A stretch of 38,883 bases of DNA from a virus. Lineage: Duplodnaviria; Caudoviricetes. Position 1 is the first letter of the stretch; the number at the start of each line of letters is the position of its first letter. Under the pieces are notes generated by a model. That model did no database searches, was not told the DNA's origin, and worked only from the letters and a program-made list of their open reading frames with translations. The stretch covers positions 1-38,883 of the IMG/VR virus record IMGVR_UViG_3300044274_000306; one strand, written 5' to 3'. Of the stretch, positions 1 through 36,749 are shown in pieces. The translations under genes and the position numbers were made by a program.

Positions 1-1320
1 TTAGAGGGCTCGTTCAATCTCTAAATTGGTCGGCATGGCGCTTGAACTCCTCAGCAAAGGCAATGTGGAGAGTGCTGTAAGCGTAAGCGATCTGAAGCGG
101 GACCACTCCTTTGCCGAGGCCGTGAAGTTGGTCGACCCTATCGGCCAGCCCATCAGCATCTCGACAAATCGCGGGTTCAAGATCCCTGGCCTGTTCGAGG
201 ATCGAGAGCCAGGCCGCATGTTCAGAAGGTCCAGGAGCAAAGAGTGGCAGGGACAGCCCTGCGCCGGCATCGGGTGCAATCCCTTGTTCCATGCCTGGTA
301 ATAGGCCGTCCTGGGGGCACCCGATGATCCCTCTCCGGAACAGGCTCGTGGTGTCGGCCAGTCTGCGATCGATGCTTTCAGATTTGCTCCACCGGAACCC
401 CGTTTCGCCTTTGCGGTCTGACCCTCCGCCCCACCGGTCAACGTGGTTGGCGTCGGCCAATTCCAGGCCGAGGCTTCGTCGGTCAGGTTCCGGCACCCCC
501 CGCCGCCGCGCCCTGCACGGACCCGATCTGGATTGCCGATCCCGATGTCGTGCGTCTGCGGCGTTGGCCAATAGTGCGCTACGTGGTTCGGCAGCTGCTG
601 ACCGATCACCTTGTTTCGTCCACGACGCTTCTGGCTTTCGCTGGAATTTGGCGGTCGCCAGTCCCGTGCTGCCGGCGTCGGCCAGTTCACCACTTGATCC
701 GGGAGCCTCCCTGGCCGCTTTGGATTGACCTGCCCATAACCGTTGTTCGTGCCTACAGTCGGGGTGGCCCAACTGCATCCACCAGCCATGCTGTCTGGCC
801 AGCACAATGAGTCGTTTTCTCTCGTGGCGCGCGCCTGTTTCAGCCGCGCTGAACAGTCCCGCCTTAACCCGATAGCCCATGTCCTGTAGGCAGGTCGCGA
901 CCTCCTGAAAGCCCAGGGACAAGTGCCCGGCGACATTTTCGAGTATGATTTCGACAGGCTGGACCTCTGCGATGATGCGGGCAATGTCCGGCCAGAGATA
1001 CCGTTCGTCGCGCTTCCCGCGTCGCAATCCTGCCTGGCTGAAAGGCTGACAGGGATAACCTGCAGTGATGCAATGAACGCGGTCGCGCCACGGGTGACCG
1101 TCGAAGGATCCAACGTCGTCCCAGACAGGTGCCTTATGATGGGTTCGCGTCTCTTCCATCCGCGCCACGAGGCGGGCTGCCGCCGTGATTTCCCGCTCGA
1201 CATAACATACAGGTCGAAACGCGGTGTCAGGGGCGATCCAGCCGTTGCTGGCAAGCCATCGGACGCCGAGTCCGACACCTTCTTCGAGCATTCCAAATCC
1301 GGCACATAGAGCCAAGGCAT
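1..1320 (-). CDS. Alternative-frame partner (beta-type) polypeptide of the C5 methyltransferase, with W(P/A)TP repeats
   Basis: 439-codon ORF in a different frame on the same strand; AGGAGG at 1333-1328, 7 nt before ATG 1320; C-terminal LNPRFVEMLMGWPIGST resembles motif IX. Confidence 0.75.
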   Translation of the reverse strand: MPWLYVPDLECSKKVSDSASDGLPATAGSPLTPRFDLYVMSSGKSRRQPASWRGWKRREPIIRHLSGTTLDPSTVTRGATAFIASLQVIPVSLSARQDCDAGSATNGISGRTLPASSQRSSLSKSYSKMSPGTCPWAFRRSRPAYRTWAIGLRRDCSARLKQARATRENDSLCWPDSMAGGCSWATPTVGTNNGYGQVNPKRPGRLPDQVVNWPTPAARDWRPPNSSESQKRRGRNKVIGQQLPNHVAHYWPTPQTHDIGIGNPDRVRAGRGGGGCRNLTDEASAWNWPTPTTLTGGAEGQTAKAKRGSGGANLKASIADWPTPRACSGEGSSGAPRTAYYQAWNKGLHPMPAQGCPCHSLLLDLLNMRPGSRSSNRPGILNPRFVEMLMGWPIGSTNFTASAKEWSRFRSLTLTALSTLPLLRSSSAMPTNLEIERAL

Positions 1321-1339
1321 TCCAATCCCTCCTGTTCAT
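14..1339 (-). CDS. DNA (cytosine-5) methyltransferase, catalytic (alpha-type) polypeptide
   Basis: Motif I LALCAGFG, motif IV AGYPCQPFS, motif VI LENV, motif VIII RHERKRL, motif X-like LHGLGKGVVP; ATGA overlap with the dam stop. Confidence 0.9.
   Translation of the reverse strand: MNRRDWNALALCAGFGMLEEGVGLGVRWLASNGWIAPDTAFRPVCYVEREITAAARLVARMEETRTHHKAPVWDDVGSFDGHPWRDRVHCITAGYPCQPFSQAGLRRGKRDERYLWPDIARIIAEVQPVEIILENVAGHLSLGFQEVATCLQDMGYRVKAGLFSAAETGARHERKRLIVLARQHGWWMQLGHPDCRHEQRLWAGQSKAAREAPGSSGELADAGSTGLATAKFQRKPEASWTKQGDRSAAAEPRSALLANAADARHRDRQSRSGPCRARRRGVPEPDRRSLGLELADANHVDRWGGGSDRKGETGFRWSKSESIDRRLADTTSLFRRGIIGCPQDGLLPGMEQGIAPDAGAGLSLPLFAPGPSEHAAWLSILEQARDLEPAICRDADGLADRVDQLHGLGKGVVPLQIAYAYSTLHIAFAEEFKRHADQFRD
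350..771 (-). repeat. Five degenerate 11-bp cores encoding W(P/A)TP, separated by variable in-frame segments
   Basis: Plus-strand GG(C/T/G)GT(C/T/G)G(G/C)CCA at 350, 449, 560, 674 and 761; spacings 99, 111, 114 and 87, all multiples of 3. Confidence 0.8.
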
Positions 1340-2148
1340 TTGCGGCCGCCCTGGATGATCAGTTCCTTGGCGGCTGTGTCTTTGGCAGATCCGTTGATTG
1401 AATAGGTCGTTGTCGCCTCCTCCATCTCGAAGGCCTGGAAGATGTCGCGGATCTGGGGCGTGTCGTTGATCGATAGGATGAACCGGCCTTTCAGGTCGCC
1501 GAGGATCTGCGCCAGGCGCTGAAAATCATCCTTAGTGAACATTCCCCGGCCATAGTCGGTCTCGGAGTCCCAATAGGGCGGGTCGAGATAGAACAGCGTC
1601 TCCGGCCGGTCATAGCGTTGAATGAATTCGTGATAGGGCAGGCATTCAATGACCACGCGCGATAAGCGGCCGTGAACGTCCTGGAGCATCGGGCCCAGCT
1701 TGGTCAGATCGAAGCGGGCGGCGGTCGCGGGTGAGACCCCAAAATTCCGGCTGGTGACCTTGCCGCCAAAGACGGTGCGCTGAACATACAGAAACCGCGC
1801 TGCGCGCTCCAGGTCGGTCAGCGTAGTTGGATCGATCTTGATCAGGCGTTCAAAATCGGCGCGGCTGGTCAGCTGAAATTCGATGACCTGGCGGAACTGA
1901 GGATAATGCCGCTGCAGGATCCTAAACAGGTTGGCCACGTCCTTATTCAGGTCGTTGATCACCTCTGCGGTCGGTTGGCGGGTTCGGCGGAAAAACACAC
2001 CCCCCATACCTACAAAGGCCTCGCAATAGGTCCTGTGGGGGATCGCATCAATCTTTTCGACCAGGCGCGCGGCCAGGTTCCTTTTGCCGCCGATATAGGG
2101 GGCGATGGGCTTCACGGGATCGATCACGCGGGTTTGGTTGGACTCCAT
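1336..2148 (-). CDS. dam: DNA adenine methyltransferase (Dam/D12 class)
   Basis: PYIGGK, EAFVGMGG, EVINDLN and FYLDPPY motifs; start placed at MESNQ after a GGAG. Confidence 0.92.
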   Translation of the reverse strand: MESNQTRVIDPVKPIAPYIGGKRNLAARLVEKIDAIPHRTYCEAFVGMGGVFFRRTRQPTAEVINDLNKDVANLFRILQRHYPQFRQVIEFQLTSRADFERLIKIDPTTLTDLERAARFLYVQRTVFGGKVTSRNFGVSPATAARFDLTKLGPMLQDVHGRLSRVVIECLPYHEFIQRYDRPETLFYLDPPYWDSETDYGRGMFTKDDFQRLAQILGDLKGRFILSINDTPQIRDIFQAFEMEEATTTYSINGSAKDTAAKELIIQGGRK

Positions 2149-2327
2149 GGTACAAATTGCTCCATTCTGACCCTGCCGCTCGAGCGGTGGCGGGGCGACC
2201 AACGGCCGGATGCGCAGACACGCATTCTGGCCGTTCTAAGTGAGGGGACCACTTCCCTCGGTTTGGGCGTTGGCGCGCCCGGACCCCCGCCTGTTTCGCG
2301 AGAGGCAATCACTTTGCTAACTGTCAT
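2124..2327 (-). CDS. Possible 67-aa leader ORF in the com position, overlapping the dam start
   Basis: ATG 2327 overlaps the upstream stop (ATGA); stop lies 25 nt inside dam; no Com CxxC motifs. Confidence 0.3.
   Translation of the reverse strand: MTVSKVIASRETGGGPGAPTPKPREVVPSLRTARMRVCASGRWSPRHRSSGRVRMEQFVPWSPTKPA
2171..2291 (-). promoter_or_regulatory. Multi-hairpin structured leader upstream of dam
   Basis: Stems 2189-2195/2285-2291, 2201-2207/2229-2235, 2242-2246/2255-2259 and 2265-2269/2276-2280; palindrome 2176-2187. Confidence 0.55.
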
Positions 2328-29671: not shown

Positions 29672-30591
29672 AGCATCCCCGCATCATTGGCGGATTTGCG
29701 GCAGCCTTCGCACATCCGGATATACTTGGAATCCGTCGTGAATGCCCTTTGGCATTTCAAACAGTTGCGATGGATGGTGGACTCTTTCGCCTTCTGTTTT
29801 GGAAGGATGGCCGCGACCTTAAATACAGAAACCTCCTCCTGCAGCCTTTGCGACATTTCCTTCGCGACTTCTTTGTTGCTGTAACCCTCGTCAACCAGGC
29901 GCAGCGCTTCGGCGCGCGTTTCAGATGTCCATTCGTGGACGGGCTTTGTAGATGGGTCAGTTGGCGCTTGGCTGGTCTCCACATATCCATTTTCAGGGAG
30001 GGCAGAATCAACAGGATCAGTCTGCGGGGCCGTTACGATGGGTACAGGTACAGTTGGCGCGTCTGAGGTATGCGGTGCGCGATACCGGAATCCTGCGTGA
30101 CCTTCCCACTTTTCGCGGATAATACGTCCAGCTATCGTGGCGTTTCTCAAAGCATTAAAAATCGATTGATTTCCAAATTGAGGTAGGGCCGCACGCAAAT
30201 CTTTGGAAGTCATCGGCTGTTTGGCACCCTGCAGGACGAAAAGGATGCTCGCCTGAACTTTACCCCAAGATGCTGGCGCGCTGGGCGCATCCTCTTTAAT
30301 CGGCCTTGCAATGACGGCGGATTCCAATCGGCCACGGGTCAGCGATATAGGAAAATCTGTGGCAGGCAGTGGGTGGGTTGCAGGATGAGACGGCGAGGCC
30401 TCCTTCTTGTCCTCAGACACCGGCCAAGAGCCCTCTGTTATGTCGCCCATTGTCAAATCATCATGCGGCTGATCCGACCAAACCCAAGCATCCGCATCCT
30501 TTGCCATTTGCACAGGATCTGCATATCCAAACTCAGCGAAGATCTTGATCAGCAGCAGGCGACGGCCTGGCACACCTTCAGATATGCTCAT
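29668..30591 (-). CDS. Multi-domain putative DNA-binding protein (wHTH, GcrA-like HTH, CxxC-CxxC)
   Basis: WTSETRAEALRLVDEGYSNKEVAKEM; RNCLKC..MCEGCR; coupled at both ends. Confidence 0.65.
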   Translation of the reverse strand: MSISEGVPGRRLLLIKIFAEFGYADPVQMAKDADAWVWSDQPHDDLTMGDITEGSWPVSEDKKEASPSHPATHPLPATDFPISLTRGRLESAVIARPIKEDAPSAPASWGKVQASILFVLQGAKQPMTSKDLRAALPQFGNQSIFNALRNATIAGRIIREKWEGHAGFRYRAPHTSDAPTVPVPIVTAPQTDPVDSALPENGYVETSQAPTDPSTKPVHEWTSETRAEALRLVDEGYSNKEVAKEMSQRLQEEVSVFKVAAILPKQKAKESTIHRNCLKCQRAFTTDSKYIRMCEGCRKSANDAGML

Positions 30592-31241
30592 TTGCCGATT
30601 TCCTCCTCATCAAAGAAGCCAATCTCATTGCCCCAACAATCCCAGCCAGGGCGCGTTGTACGGCTGTTCAACTCGACGTATGGGCCCGCCACCAGACGCT
30701 CCAGCCGCGCCATGACCTGGTCGGGCTTGCGGCTGTGCTCGCGCACGGGCGCGATGATCGTGGTCCGGACATCCTTGGCCAGGCGCAGCGGCGCATTATG
30801 TTTGGCCAAGAGGCAGAGTTCGGGATTCTGGCGTGTCCAATAGCCCATGCCGATTGGACAGATCGCATCGGTCAGCGCGTCATAGTCCTGCGCCGCCAAG
30901 GCCTGCGACAGTAGATCCAGGCGGTGGCGTTGTGTTCCGAACAGGTCATAGGTTTTGACCCAAACGAATCCGACCGTCGAATAGGTAAACCCCCAAGCAT
31001 CCAGAATTTCGAACGCTTGCTGCAAGTGTGGGTTCGTCGTCCACATTGCCAAAAGGCAGTCCGGTGCAGCCAGATCCATGACAGGCATCGCCATGATCTC
31101 TGCTTTACTCATCGTGTCGTATTTCGGCGATCGCCCTTTTCCGGAGTCCGAATACGTCTCTTGATCAAAGGCGGGATCCGCATGGATCAGGCCATAATGC
31201 AGCGGCTTCAGATCGCCCCAATACCAGTCCTTGAGTTTCAT
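30588..31241 (-). CDS. MT-A70-family N6-adenine methyltransferase with non-canonical motifs
   Basis: IHADPAF, FVWVK, GYWTRQNPELCLLA, REHSRKPD, VELNSR and GWDCWGNE. Confidence 0.88.
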   Translation of the reverse strand: MKLKDWYWGDLKPLHYGLIHADPAFDQETYSDSGKGRSPKYDTMSKAEIMAMPVMDLAAPDCLLAMWTTNPHLQQAFEILDAWGFTYSTVGFVWVKTYDLFGTQRHRLDLLSQALAAQDYDALTDAICPIGMGYWTRQNPELCLLAKHNAPLRLAKDVRTTIIAPVREHSRKPDQVMARLERLVAGPYVELNSRTTRPGWDCWGNEIGFFDEEEIGK

Positions 31242-33651: not shown

Positions 33652-34607
33652 ACCCGATCTCCCTCAGTGCCTGCCAGTTGCTGCCAGGCCTGTCGCAAAT
33701 GGCCCAGACACCGCGTCTCACCCGCGCCATCGGCCGTCACCGTCGCGATCCGCATCATCTTGGTGACGCTGCGCAGCGCGCCAGGCTTCGCTGCGATCTT
33801 GGCAATGAAGGTTCGCTCTGCCGCATCGGTGATGCTCCAGGCATCCGCGATCGAGTCCACATCACCCTTGCGCGCCTTGTTCAGCACAAGGCGCATGCCG
33901 ACACGGCTGGCCAGCTGGGCGTACTGTCCGCGCCCGGACCCACCAGCGATCTTCTTTAGGATGGAGTGGTTGCCCGCCAGCACGACCCCAGCACCCGCCG
34001 TATCGCTGAAGGCGCGCAGCTGCTCCAGCATGTCCATGCCGGCATGCTGCGCCTCGTCAATGATGATCAGCCCTTCCTTCGCCTGCAGGAACGCGCCAAT
34101 CCTCTGGCTCAACAGTGCCGGATTCTTTTCGGTGATCCGCATCACTTCCGTCAGCAGAATCAACATCGCAAACACGCTCTTGCAACTCGGCTCCAGCGTT
34201 AGGCGAAACACGTTGGGCGTGGTCGCGGCGTAATGGTCGATCGCGCTCGTCTTGCCAATTCCCGGCACACCAACAACGACGCAGAGGTCCTGCGCGACAT
34301 GGGCATAACGCAGCAGCGCCAGAATCTCGCTAGCGCTCGGCGTCGGACGATAACCTGGCACCGGCGGCAGGGTTGCATTCACCGCCGCCGCAGCTGTGCG
34401 TGCCGCCAGCCAGCGGGAGACCATTACTGCGATCCGCTCGTTGTCACCCGCGTATTTCCCGGTACTGAAGACACTGATCGTCCCGGCCTTGACGCCGCTG
34501 GCGCGCTCAATATCAGTCCAGGTCAGGCCCTCGCGGGCCTTGATCTCATTTAATTGGCGGCGAATGCCGTCAATGTCGGTTTCGGTGGTAATCGCGATAT
34601 CGTTCAT
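33648..34607 (-). CDS. MuB-like transposition AAA+ ATPase
   Basis: Walker A GVPGIGKT, Walker B IIIDEAQH, AQLASRVG and GALR. Confidence 0.95.
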   Translation of the reverse strand: MNDIAITTETDIDGIRRQLNEIKAREGLTWTDIERASGVKAGTISVFSTGKYAGDNERIAVMVSRWLAARTAAAAVNATLPPVPGYRPTPSASEILALLRYAHVAQDLCVVVGVPGIGKTSAIDHYAATTPNVFRLTLEPSCKSVFAMLILLTEVMRITEKNPALLSQRIGAFLQAKEGLIIIDEAQHAGMDMLEQLRAFSDTAGAGVVLAGNHSILKKIAGGSGRGQYAQLASRVGMRLVLNKARKGDVDSIADAWSITDAAERTFIAKIAAKPGALRSVTKMMRIATVTADGAGETRCLGHLRQAWQQLAGTEGDRV

Positions 34608-34650
34608 GTAGAAACAACTCCTGCGGTTGGGGCCATCAGGCCCGGTTGAA

Positions 34651-34683
34651 GAGGGCGTGTCCGATGTCGGTCGGCACGCCCTC
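34651..34683. other. Stem-loop between MuA and MuB
   Basis: GAGGGCGTG/CACGCCCTC with inner CCGA/TCGG; GCTTTT follows on the plus strand. Confidence 0.6.
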
Positions 34684-34694
34684 GCTTTTGCGGG

Positions 34695-36749
34695 TTATTC
34701 ACCCGCTGCGATTTTCGACATCCCCTTGACGAAGTTGACGACCATCGATTCCCCTTCATCGGCACGCAGCACCTCATGTTCGGCATCGCGCTCAGGGTCG
34801 GCCAGACGCTGGAAATGACCCTTAACCACAACCGGATCGGGTGTGCCGGGAGGTTCAATGCCAGTCGCACCAGGTGCCCCAGTGGCGTCCGAATACATTG
34901 ACGCCCTGGCCAGGACACCCATCCGCTCCTCAGCAGCGGCCTTGGCCTTTCCGGCCTTGATCGCGCGACTCTTGAATTTGCCCCATTCACGGCCGTCTGC
35001 TGTGTTGTTAAACCCGGTGCTGGGCAGGCACTCGGCGGCGAACAGATAGCGCCCGTCCAGGCCATAGACATGGACGTCAGCATGCAAGTTCTCCGGGTCG
35101 TAATGGACGGCCAGCTTCTTTCCGGCGTAATCCGGCAGTTGCGCCGACCAATACCGGTTGCGCCCATGCGGACCCATCCCCGCCTTCAGCGCTAGGTGAC
35201 CGTCGCGGGAATTGGCCCGAACGACCTCACGAGACAGCAAGAGCAACCGGCGCTGCCGCTCGGACAGCACGCGTGGAGCTTGTTCGGTGATGGCGGCTTC
35301 CCAGGCCTGATCAAAACTCAGTATTCCGCCACAGGCCTGGTTGCGGCGTTTCGTCTTGGCATTATGGCGGGCGACCTCATGGCTGATGACCGCACGCAGT
35401 TCCTCCACGGTGATCGCCGTCTTCTTGCTGAATCCGCGCCCGACAAAACTCGGGTTGGTGGCAACCATCTCGTGCAGCCCGCCGATTCCAAAGGCCCGCT
35501 CTATCGGCTTCGCACCGGGATTGCCCGTCTCCTTGTCTGGATTCGTGAAATGCACCTCGATTCCCAGCATCAACAACAGACCCTGACCATCCTCTGGATC
35601 GGACTTGAAACGCCTGCGGCCTTCCGTGCCCGCCGTCATCAGCTTGTTCGCGGCGACCGTGGTGTTATCGACATACAGATGATCCGGCGCGCAGACTCCG
35701 GTTAGGTCATAGGTCGCCAGCCGGAACAGGTCGGTGTTCTCGGTCTTGTCCAGCCGCCAGGCGAGGATCCGTCGAGTACGCAGATCCTGATAGAACCACC
35801 CTGTCGCGGTGTTTAGGATTTCACCATCCGGGAACCGGACCCACAGCCGGTCGAATTTCAGCCCATCACCGTTGACTGCCTCACCGGCCCCGAAGACCAG
35901 CGCGTCCCGGTCCTGTTTGGGCAGCACCGTTGCCGCCGCCTGCGGCCCTTCGCGCCTCAGCTTGCGTTCGTAATTCTCAACCTCGCTATTGACCCGGCGG
36001 CGTAGTGTAGCAGCAGATGGGATAACCCAACCCTCTGCCGACGCCAGCGCCTTCAGCCGGTCATAGGTATCGGCATGTGTCGGCTGCGACCGCGTCAAAT
36101 AATGCCCCCGGTACCAATCCCATGCACGCGGGTCGCACTCGGCTGTCACCTGCCGTCCGACATAGCGTGGGGCCAGGGCCGGTAGCCAGTCCGACCGCTC
36201 CAACCCCGCGACCAGCTCAAACCATGTCCAGATCGTGCGGGCGCTGATTTTCGCGCCCTCTTGCTTCCACCGCCGGGCGACTGATCCGACAGCAACATTC
36301 TTTGTCATTCCACCGCGATACAGCCCCTCAACCTCGTCCAGCACGGCCAGCCGCCACTCCGCAGTCTCTCGCTGTTTCTCGCTGGCGCGCTCGTAATCCT
36401 CCCACAGCGTCGTGCGCGATGCGGGGCGGACCACCCCGGCCTGAGGACCCGGTGTTGGGCCAACCGTTACCATACGCTCCTTGGCAAAACGCCGAGTCAG
36501 ATCCTCCTGCGCCTCGGCAGGCAGCAAGGTATAGTGATATTCCCACCCGCCACCGCGCCCCTGTTTTCGCCGTGCCAGCGCCCGCCCCATCCGGTCGCGG
36601 CGAGACCGCCATTTCTCGCGCTGTGCTAGATTATGAACCCCCATCTTAGAATGTGGCAGACAACGAAGTTCTATATCAGCGAGGGCTTTGGCATTGAACC
36701 ATTCGACCATCACGAGTTGCCCGTCGATCCACTCTGATATCGCCGTCAT
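34695..36749 (-). CDS. MuA-like DDE transposase
   Basis: N-terminal Mu HTH (GRGGGWEYH..LP); catalytic NGDG, YVDN and KPIERAF. Confidence 0.95.
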   Translation of the reverse strand: MTAISEWIDGQLVMVEWFNAKALADIELRCLPHSKMGVHNLAQREKWRSRRDRMGRALARRKQGRGGGWEYHYTLLPAEAQEDLTRRFAKERMVTVGPTPGPQAGVVRPASRTTLWEDYERASEKQRETAEWRLAVLDEVEGLYRGGMTKNVAVGSVARRWKQEGAKISARTIWTWFELVAGLERSDWLPALAPRYVGRQVTAECDPRAWDWYRGHYLTRSQPTHADTYDRLKALASAEGWVIPSAATLRRRVNSEVENYERKLRREGPQAAATVLPKQDRDALVFGAGEAVNGDGLKFDRLWVRFPDGEILNTATGWFYQDLRTRRILAWRLDKTENTDLFRLATYDLTGVCAPDHLYVDNTTVAANKLMTAGTEGRRRFKSDPEDGQGLLLMLGIEVHFTNPDKETGNPGAKPIERAFGIGGLHEMVATNPSFVGRGFSKKTAITVEELRAVISHEVARHNAKTKRRNQACGGILSFDQAWEAAITEQAPRVLSERQRRLLLLSREVVRANSRDGHLALKAGMGPHGRNRYWSAQLPDYAGKKLAVHYDPENLHADVHVYGLDGRYLFAAECLPSTGFNNTADGREWGKFKSRAIKAGKAKAAAEERMGVLARASMYSDATGAPGATGIEPPGTPDPVVVKGHFQRLADPERDAEHEVLRADEGESMVVNFVKGMSKIAAGE

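Follow-up and report, generated by a model that had tools for sequence, protein, structure and literature searches.

Among cytosine C5 methyltransferases built from two chains, the closest point of comparison for the locus described here is M.EcoHK31I, the original paper on which is reportedly that of Lee, Kam and Shaw from 1995. As described in passages of PMC2836561 and PMC3404938, this E. coli enzyme (recognition sequence YGGCCR) consists of two chains read from one DNA stretch in different frames, with motif IX residing on the other chain and both chains being required. A second two-chain C5 enzyme is M.AquI (CYCGRG), whose small chain comprises part of the variable region together with motifs IX and X, according to the part of PMC3404938 devoted to it. 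Bacillus phages (SPR, H2 and others) encode multispecific C5 methyltransferases in which, as presented in a section of PMC8936443, recognition units are arranged in tandem between motif VIII and motif IX. Finally, Mu-like prophages encode adenine methylases at the mom position (Hin1523, Hia5, Nma1821), to which PMC3299994 assigns an anti-restriction role.

The window analysed here, a stretch of 38,883 nucleotides of viral DNA, is a provirus record with a Mu-type transposase, a transposition protein, a late activator and head genes, and carries two methylase genes at the far end of this Mu-like genome. We consider it highly probable that the 1.3 kb at this end encode two conserved overlapping proteins, A with the C5 catalytic motifs and B with the missing motif IX, which are predicted to form one enzyme and likely methylate phage DNA against host restriction. 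The features of the locus are as follows.

1336..2202, minus strand: Dam-family (D12 class) adenine methylase gene of the same terminal cassette (family search)
1336..1339, minus strand: ATGA, with the start of A on the stop codon of the adenine methylase gene upstream (sequence; suggestive of translational coupling)
14..1339, minus strand: frame A, putative catalytic chain of 441 aa (PF00145, E 9.5e-23; phrog_363; AlphaFold2 pTM 0.68; Foldseek to M.HaeIII and M.HhaI)
1328..1333, minus strand: AGGAGG Shine-Dalgarno site, 7 nt upstream of the ATG of B and identical with the Arg3-Arg4 codons (codons 3-4) of A
1..1320, minus strand: frame B (+1 relative to A), putative partner chain of 439 aa (phrog_1008, E 3e-18; 297 homologues)
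1300..1320, minus strand: start of B with the conserved M-x-W-L-Y-x-P motif (alignment of B homologues, starts in relatives)
1315-1313, minus strand: in-frame TTG for A, at +5 from the B start (sequence)
1277..1309, minus strand: motif I of A, LCAGFGMLEEG (sequence)
1046..1060, minus strand: motif IV of A, GYPCQ, with the catalytic Cys within (alignment)
932..940, minus strand: motif VI of A, ENV (alignment)
812..841, minus strand: motif VIII of A, ETGARHERKR (alignment)
349..771, minus strand: five W-x-T-P modules of B, starting at 771, 684, 570, 459 and 360, candidate tandem target-recognition units (strong selection on B; proposed recognition role)
142..180, minus strand: motif IX of frame B, LNPRFVEMLMGWP (B profile on control enzymes; complex model)
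98..115, minus strand: motif X of A, GKGVVP, with Lys at 112-110 (alignment of 120 proteins)

The two frames overlap by 1,307 nt, or 98.6% of A, in the final 1.3 kb of the window on its minus strand, B starting beside the start of A and ending 13 nt past its stop. The original prediction had placed A at 1339-14 with motifs I, IV, VI, VIII and X but no motif IX, and B at 1320-1 with 439 open codons and the AGGAGG inside codons 3-4 of A; coordinates and motifs were confirmed for both frames. A shows no motif IX signal. Motifs I-VIII occupy residues ~5-183 of A and are followed by a low-confidence middle (~211-359), motif X and a C-terminal helix. In B, the WLYVP start motif precedes ordered N-terminal elements (37-89 and 142-161), the five WxTP modules, motif IX and a C-terminal helix. 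Neither the five WxTP modules nor the Lys at the motif X Asn position had figured in the original prediction.

The region around the AGGAGG has no unusual RNA structure (z +1.1), and neither a sigma-70 promoter nor a terminator was found in 1-2700. Positions 1-1339 are matched without a difference by contigs from three DNA runs, which are possibly the source of the window DNA; one RNA-library contig covers 78-252 at a depth of 2.6 and may itself derive from DNA. The record is trimmed exactly at the stop codon of B (window 1-3), and since contigs extend past base 1, the window does not reach the Mu right end.

Compared by description, the locus resembles M.EcoHK31I, passages on which likewise place motifs I-VIII and X on one chain and motif IX on another, read from a different frame of the same DNA. 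In those passages, however, the beta chain is smaller and nested in alpha, whereas here B (439 aa) is about as long as A (441 aa) and ends past the stop of A. B further differs from the beta chain as described there by an extra N-terminal region, five tandem modules and a start beside that of A, and it belongs to an orphan gene of a prophage. In M.AquI, as far as the cited part of PMC3404938 goes, motifs IX and X stay together and long dual coding is not needed, while motif X remains in frame A here.

The PF00145 match of A extends across motifs IV-VIII, and C5 motifs I, IV (PC), VI (ENV) and VIII (RxR) lie on a Rossmann fold that resembles those of M.HaeIII and M.HhaI (Foldseek, E about 1e-10). 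The order expected of a one-chain C5 enzyme, with motif IX before motif X in the same chain, is not found, as IX is in frame B and X in frame A. Motif I of A carries a G-to-M variant, which recurs in a distant relative (L005, LCAGVGMLGEG). A further peculiarity concerns motif X, which reads GKG in A, while Asn (GNG) stands at this position in the other 119 of the 120 aligned proteins, none of which has the Lys410 of A; the Lys form was not counted once among the fetched loci either. The base responsible for the Lys is borne out by the contigs of the three DNA runs, with the reservation that these may be the source DNA. The two nearest B-frame relatives have T or M at the overlapping codon, implying Asn in their A frame, so the Lys at motif X is derived. 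Passages of PMC3526304 describe Asn304 of M.HhaI as lining the cofactor pocket and report a 27-fold slower methyl transfer for the Y254S/N304A double mutant. By its sequence, the window copy may hence be weaker than its family.

A stronger form of this idea, according to which the family works as proposed but the window copy is weakened or dead through the Lys near the cofactor pocket, is a tangible possibility, although we lean against it. Besides the near-invariance of the Asn, the derived state of the Lys and the slow M.HhaI double mutant speak for it. On the other hand, each frame is complete and has its start, the catalytic Cys, Glu and Arg residues are preserved, the M.HhaI mutants remained active as far as described in PMC3526304, and the equivalence of residue 410 with Asn304 rests on our own reading of the motif. 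This explanation concerns the window allele alone and is compatible with a two-chain enzyme encoded in two frames.

That frame B is open by more than chance follows from several null models. The +1 frame was stop-free in none of 150 synonymous shuffles of A (mean 6.3 stops), and with phage codon usage B was left open in 8 of 5000 recodings of A, and A in 0 of 5000 recodings of B. Sixteen other window genes contain 6-22 stops in their +1 frame, with a longest open run of 188 codons, and seven plasmid C5 methylases used as controls contain 10-31. For a comparison with relatives, 240 loci were fetched with the alignment of A alone, in three sets that each comprise the best 80 of about 560-600 confirmed loci, which tilts the sample toward close relatives whose kinship makes them non-independent. 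Before counting, 28 of the 240 were dropped for lack of a full-length A, among them some cut at contig ends, one with a transposase insertion (L056) and one rearranged locus (L302). Among the remaining 212 loci, the +1 frame is stop-free over the span of A in 184 and open over at least 85% of it in 211; a single internal stop occurs in locus L022. When the set is dereplicated at 70% identity, the +1 frame is open over at least 91% in all 66 representatives, with stops confined to the first 1% or last 9%, so that the frequent stops named beforehand as evidence against B are not seen in homologues. Relatives of 45-50% GC keep the +1 frame open likewise, while their +2 frame has 6-32 stops. Conversely, a C5-methylase match was present in the -1 frame at all of the best 80 loci fetched by the motif of B.

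The start of B is conserved as well. An ATG, GTG or TTG lies one or two codons 5' of the WLYxP Trp in 63 of the 66 representatives, compared with 94 of 717 internal Trp codons, and a purine-rich site is found upstream of the B start in 44 of the 63. As WLYxP is kept whether it lies over the leader of A or over its motif I, the motif is no shadow of A. Candidate A starts in relatives lie at -4, +2 or +5 from the B start; the latter two positions are partly a consequence of the TGG codon, yet fit the N-termini of A proteins in databases. In the window copy, two A starts are conceivable, one at -19 with coupling to the dam gene upstream and the other the TTG at +5.

B falls into PHROG 1008 and has 297 homologues in databases; these proteins begin with M-x-W-L-Y-x-P, contain WxTP repeats and have LNPxFVEWLMGWPxGWT close to their C-terminus. 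No usable match of B was obtained in Pfam, NCBIfam or the PDB by sequence, profile or fold; matches to MS2 coat protein were rejected as chance. A direct IMG/VR search with A or P0122 yielded no new close relative, only a window-identical contig and distant loci, and about 1,700 IMG/VR stretches are estimated to carry the motif of B (372 of 600 examined were confirmed). B is a real conserved gene, and chance is excluded.

How selection acts on the two frames was assessed in a gap-free clade of 55 loci by counting distinct alleles against the clade majority. The variable wobble position passes from A to B in mid-gene: over motifs I-VIII the third codon position of A is variable, while in the middle 140 codons its first position (the third of B) varies and its third is nearly fixed. 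Across these 140 codons, identity amounts to 0.84-0.98 for B versus 0.62-0.77 for A. As the loci are related, the counts are descriptive. In the middle, 221 of the 287 possible B-silent changes were seen as opposed to 45 of the 323 A-silent ones, the reverse of the A core, where the corresponding figures are 85 of 421 and 215 of 362. Among A-silent changes, those creating a stop in B occurred in 2 of 44 cases, compared with 24 of 55 for stops in the +2 frame; B-silent changes introducing a stop into the middle of A occurred in 3 of 27, and A-silent changes altering a B Trp in the core in 0 of 12. At the same time, 59% of the possible A-silent, B-missense changes do occur in the A core, which indicates that much of the N-terminal half of B is weakly constrained. 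Of four automatic neighbour-gene controls, three looked off-frame and were ignored; the one valid control gene has a third-position entropy of 1.1, compared with 0.02-0.21 in the B-dominated region. A and B are both under purifying selection in relatives. The allele patterns indicate a division of labour, with the first 180 codons important in A, the middle in B and motifs IX and X in both, each frame keeping the other open. In the part of the literature on M.EcoHK31I cited above, in contrast, the target recognition domain is assigned to alpha; here, selection on the variable region acts on B and not on A.

The motif IX-like end of B, recognised as such in the original prediction, was borne out by two comparisons. 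A profile of 48 B motifs had its best score on the canonical motif IX in five of seven plasmid C5 enzymes; of the other two, one had its best score elsewhere and one was an annotated protein without IX. Mycobacteriophage Beemo gp84, moreover, unites B-type modules with motifs IX and X in one chain in canonical order. Judged by these sequences, LNPRFVEMLMGWP of B is motif IX.

In the modelled A+B complex, an ipSAE of 0.87 was reached in three runs, compared with 0.00 for the best of three controls; for calibration, 116 of 157 solved pairs attained the mark, as did 2 of 215 mismatched ones. At least 47% of contacts are common to the runs, and the partner pLDDT is at least 51. The tightest and surest contacts join A413-415 (motif X) with B390-392 (MGW), the predicted interface also taking in WLYVP of B and its residues 37-89 and 138-167. 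The model of B alone is poor (pTM 0.28). As A and B would be halves of a known split fold, part of the complex score may stem from resemblance to one-chain C5 enzymes of known structure. The structure prediction envisaged beforehand thus places motif IX of B on motif X of A, and A and B are predicted to pair into one cytosine methylase. Together with the open frame B in relatives, the purifying selection on both frames and the identification of motif IX, this packing supports the proposal of an M.EcoHK31I-like heterodimer with near-total overlap.

The five WxTP modules lie outside the confident interface, at the position where the variable region belongs. Their number ranges from 0 to 6 per locus across 52 loci, and whole modules are gained or lost between close relatives; a WxTP profile, run on control C5 enzymes, gave no consistent match to their recognition domains. 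From their position and their modular gain and loss, the WxTP modules of B may set the target sequences. By description, this resembles the SPR and H2 enzymes, which are phage enzymes too and in which tandem units, candidates only in the present case, lie between motifs VIII and IX. As presented in PMC8936443, however, those enzymes are single chains, while two chains are proposed here and multispecificity is a mere candidate trait.

B might also be real but serve as a regulator or inhibitor of A, or have an unrelated job, with A reading DNA through its own middle region. We regard this as improbable: B has no solved homologue and the M.EcoHK31I target recognition domain is placed in alpha in the cited descriptions, but the middle of A tolerates most missense changes, has low confidence in the model and is reduced to a short linker in relatives of ~300 aa, and motif IX, which every C5 enzyme has as a structural component, is found in B. 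More improbable still is a single polypeptide made by programmed frameshifting, in which motifs I-VIII of A would be followed by a +1 shift into the modules and motif IX of B and a -1 shift back to motif X. The canonical motif order would result, and natural variants with IX and X in one frame exist (Beemo gp84; L302), yet two shifts are required, and the conserved start of B with WLYxP (63/66), the open first half of B and the open middle of A (B-silent stops of A 3/27 versus missense 221/287) would be left unexplained. The notion that B is a passive shadow of the conserved codons of A and of high GC (about 62%), to which the profile scores of B in the A core, partly a reflection of shared DNA, might lend some colour, has a negligible probability and is refuted by the open frames in relatives including those of low GC, the wobble switch and the allele counts, as well as by the synonymous shuffles, codon-usage recodings and stop-rich +1 frames of the control methylases (10-31).

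For a two-chain enzyme encoded in two frames, a single late mRNA would serve both chains: translation of A would be coupled to the stop of the dam gene upstream or begin at the TTG at +5, and that of B would depend on the AGGAGG. In most relatives, the starts of A and B are offset by -4 to +5 nt and follow what is apparently one ribosome-binding site. The motif IX helix of B would pack on motif X of A and the N-terminal elements of B would clamp on its Rossmann domain, while the tandem WxTP modules would replace the variable region as exchangeable target-recognition units and the middle third of A would be a mere read-through linker reaching motif X. In the window copy, activity may be reduced through the Asn-to-Lys change. 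A bolder proposal, which we hold tentatively and at slightly less than even chances, is that the large phage family represents a programmable two-subunit methylase, the hidden frame being the specificity subunit in which each WxTP module reads a different DNA sequence and is swapped by in-frame gain or loss, with starts 2-5 nt apart behind one ribosome-binding site setting the chain ratio. If true, a Type I-like split into catalytic and specificity subunits would have been attained by overprinting, and exchangeable modules could yield methylases of designed specificity.

The Dam-like gene and the two-frame enzyme would form an orphan modification cassette at the Mu-like genome end, where Mu has mom. 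The DNA-modifying genes for Hin1523, Hia5 and Nma1821 likewise lie at the end of a Mu-like genome; those enzymes are one-chain m6A enzymes, whereas here a Dam-family gene is followed by a two-frame m5C enzyme. Neighbouring ORFs of relatives are often adenine methylases and twice Mu Com. Short members of ~300 aa (L171, L172, L173, L176, L188, L214, L285) adjoin D12 adenine methylase, Mu Gam or Mu Com genes, showing that the pairing with a Dam-like gene recurs in Mu-like prophages. No restriction-enzyme domain was found among the 48 window proteins or 107 sampled neighbour ORFs of relatives, many of which have no family match. The role of the two-frame methylase is likely late anti-restriction methylation. 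Elsewhere in the window, a third methyltransferase-like gene (30588-31241, minus strand; phrog_359, E 4e-70) lies in the prophage early region, and an ATG ORF of 187 codons without family match (34604-35167, minus strand) shares about 470 nt with the 3' portion of the transposase gene (34695-36749, minus strand), which is on the same strand.

To our knowledge, a same-strand overlap of two genes of ~440 codons over nearly their whole length, with both under selection, is very rare outside small viruses. In the full-text literature searched, which did not extend to subscription journals, supplements, REBASE notes or SEA-PHAGES guidance, no description of a near-total two-frame methylase layout in phages was found; the portion of PMC2884959 that lists methylases makes no mention of overlap. 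Judging from the relatives, the layout is the rule in a large family and not a one-off, set apart from the EcoHK31I type by its near-total overlap and by the likely target recognition in B. The expectation that gene callers would keep only one frame holds in part: the GenBank records of phi1026b and Yong-M2-251 annotate A alone although B is open, but B-type proteins have been called often enough to give PHROG 1008 and 297 matches. As annotated copies often read as one-chain methylases, recoding or codon optimisation would destroy B and give false negatives, and specificity predictions from such copies would examine the wrong frame.

Three layouts in relatives (an AquI-like split, a nested internal start and full overlap) make the origin of such long overlapping genes testable. 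The M.AquI-like split occurs in Mycobacterium phage Beemo (L004:1441-2455), where gp85 stops after motif VIII and gp84 consists of two PTP modules, IX and X; the frame of gp84 is open well upstream of its annotated start. Mycobacterium phage OwlsT2W (L006:1498-2211) carries at gp71 an unannotated +1 ORF, a shorter B that starts inside A with one WRTP module and motif IX, and this nested form is the layout closest to EcoHK31I. At L302:328-1553, A terminates behind an incomplete motif X, and frame B runs from IX into motif X sequence, as by a small duplication, which is possibly an assembly artefact. At L056:1635-3840, transposase-like sequence is inserted just 5' of motifs IX and X and fused in frame to A. 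Finally, an annotated dcm protein on a Methylobacterium plasmid (L340:1126-2205) has motif X, no recognisable IX and an open run of 124 codons in the +1 frame, and is possibly another split enzyme.
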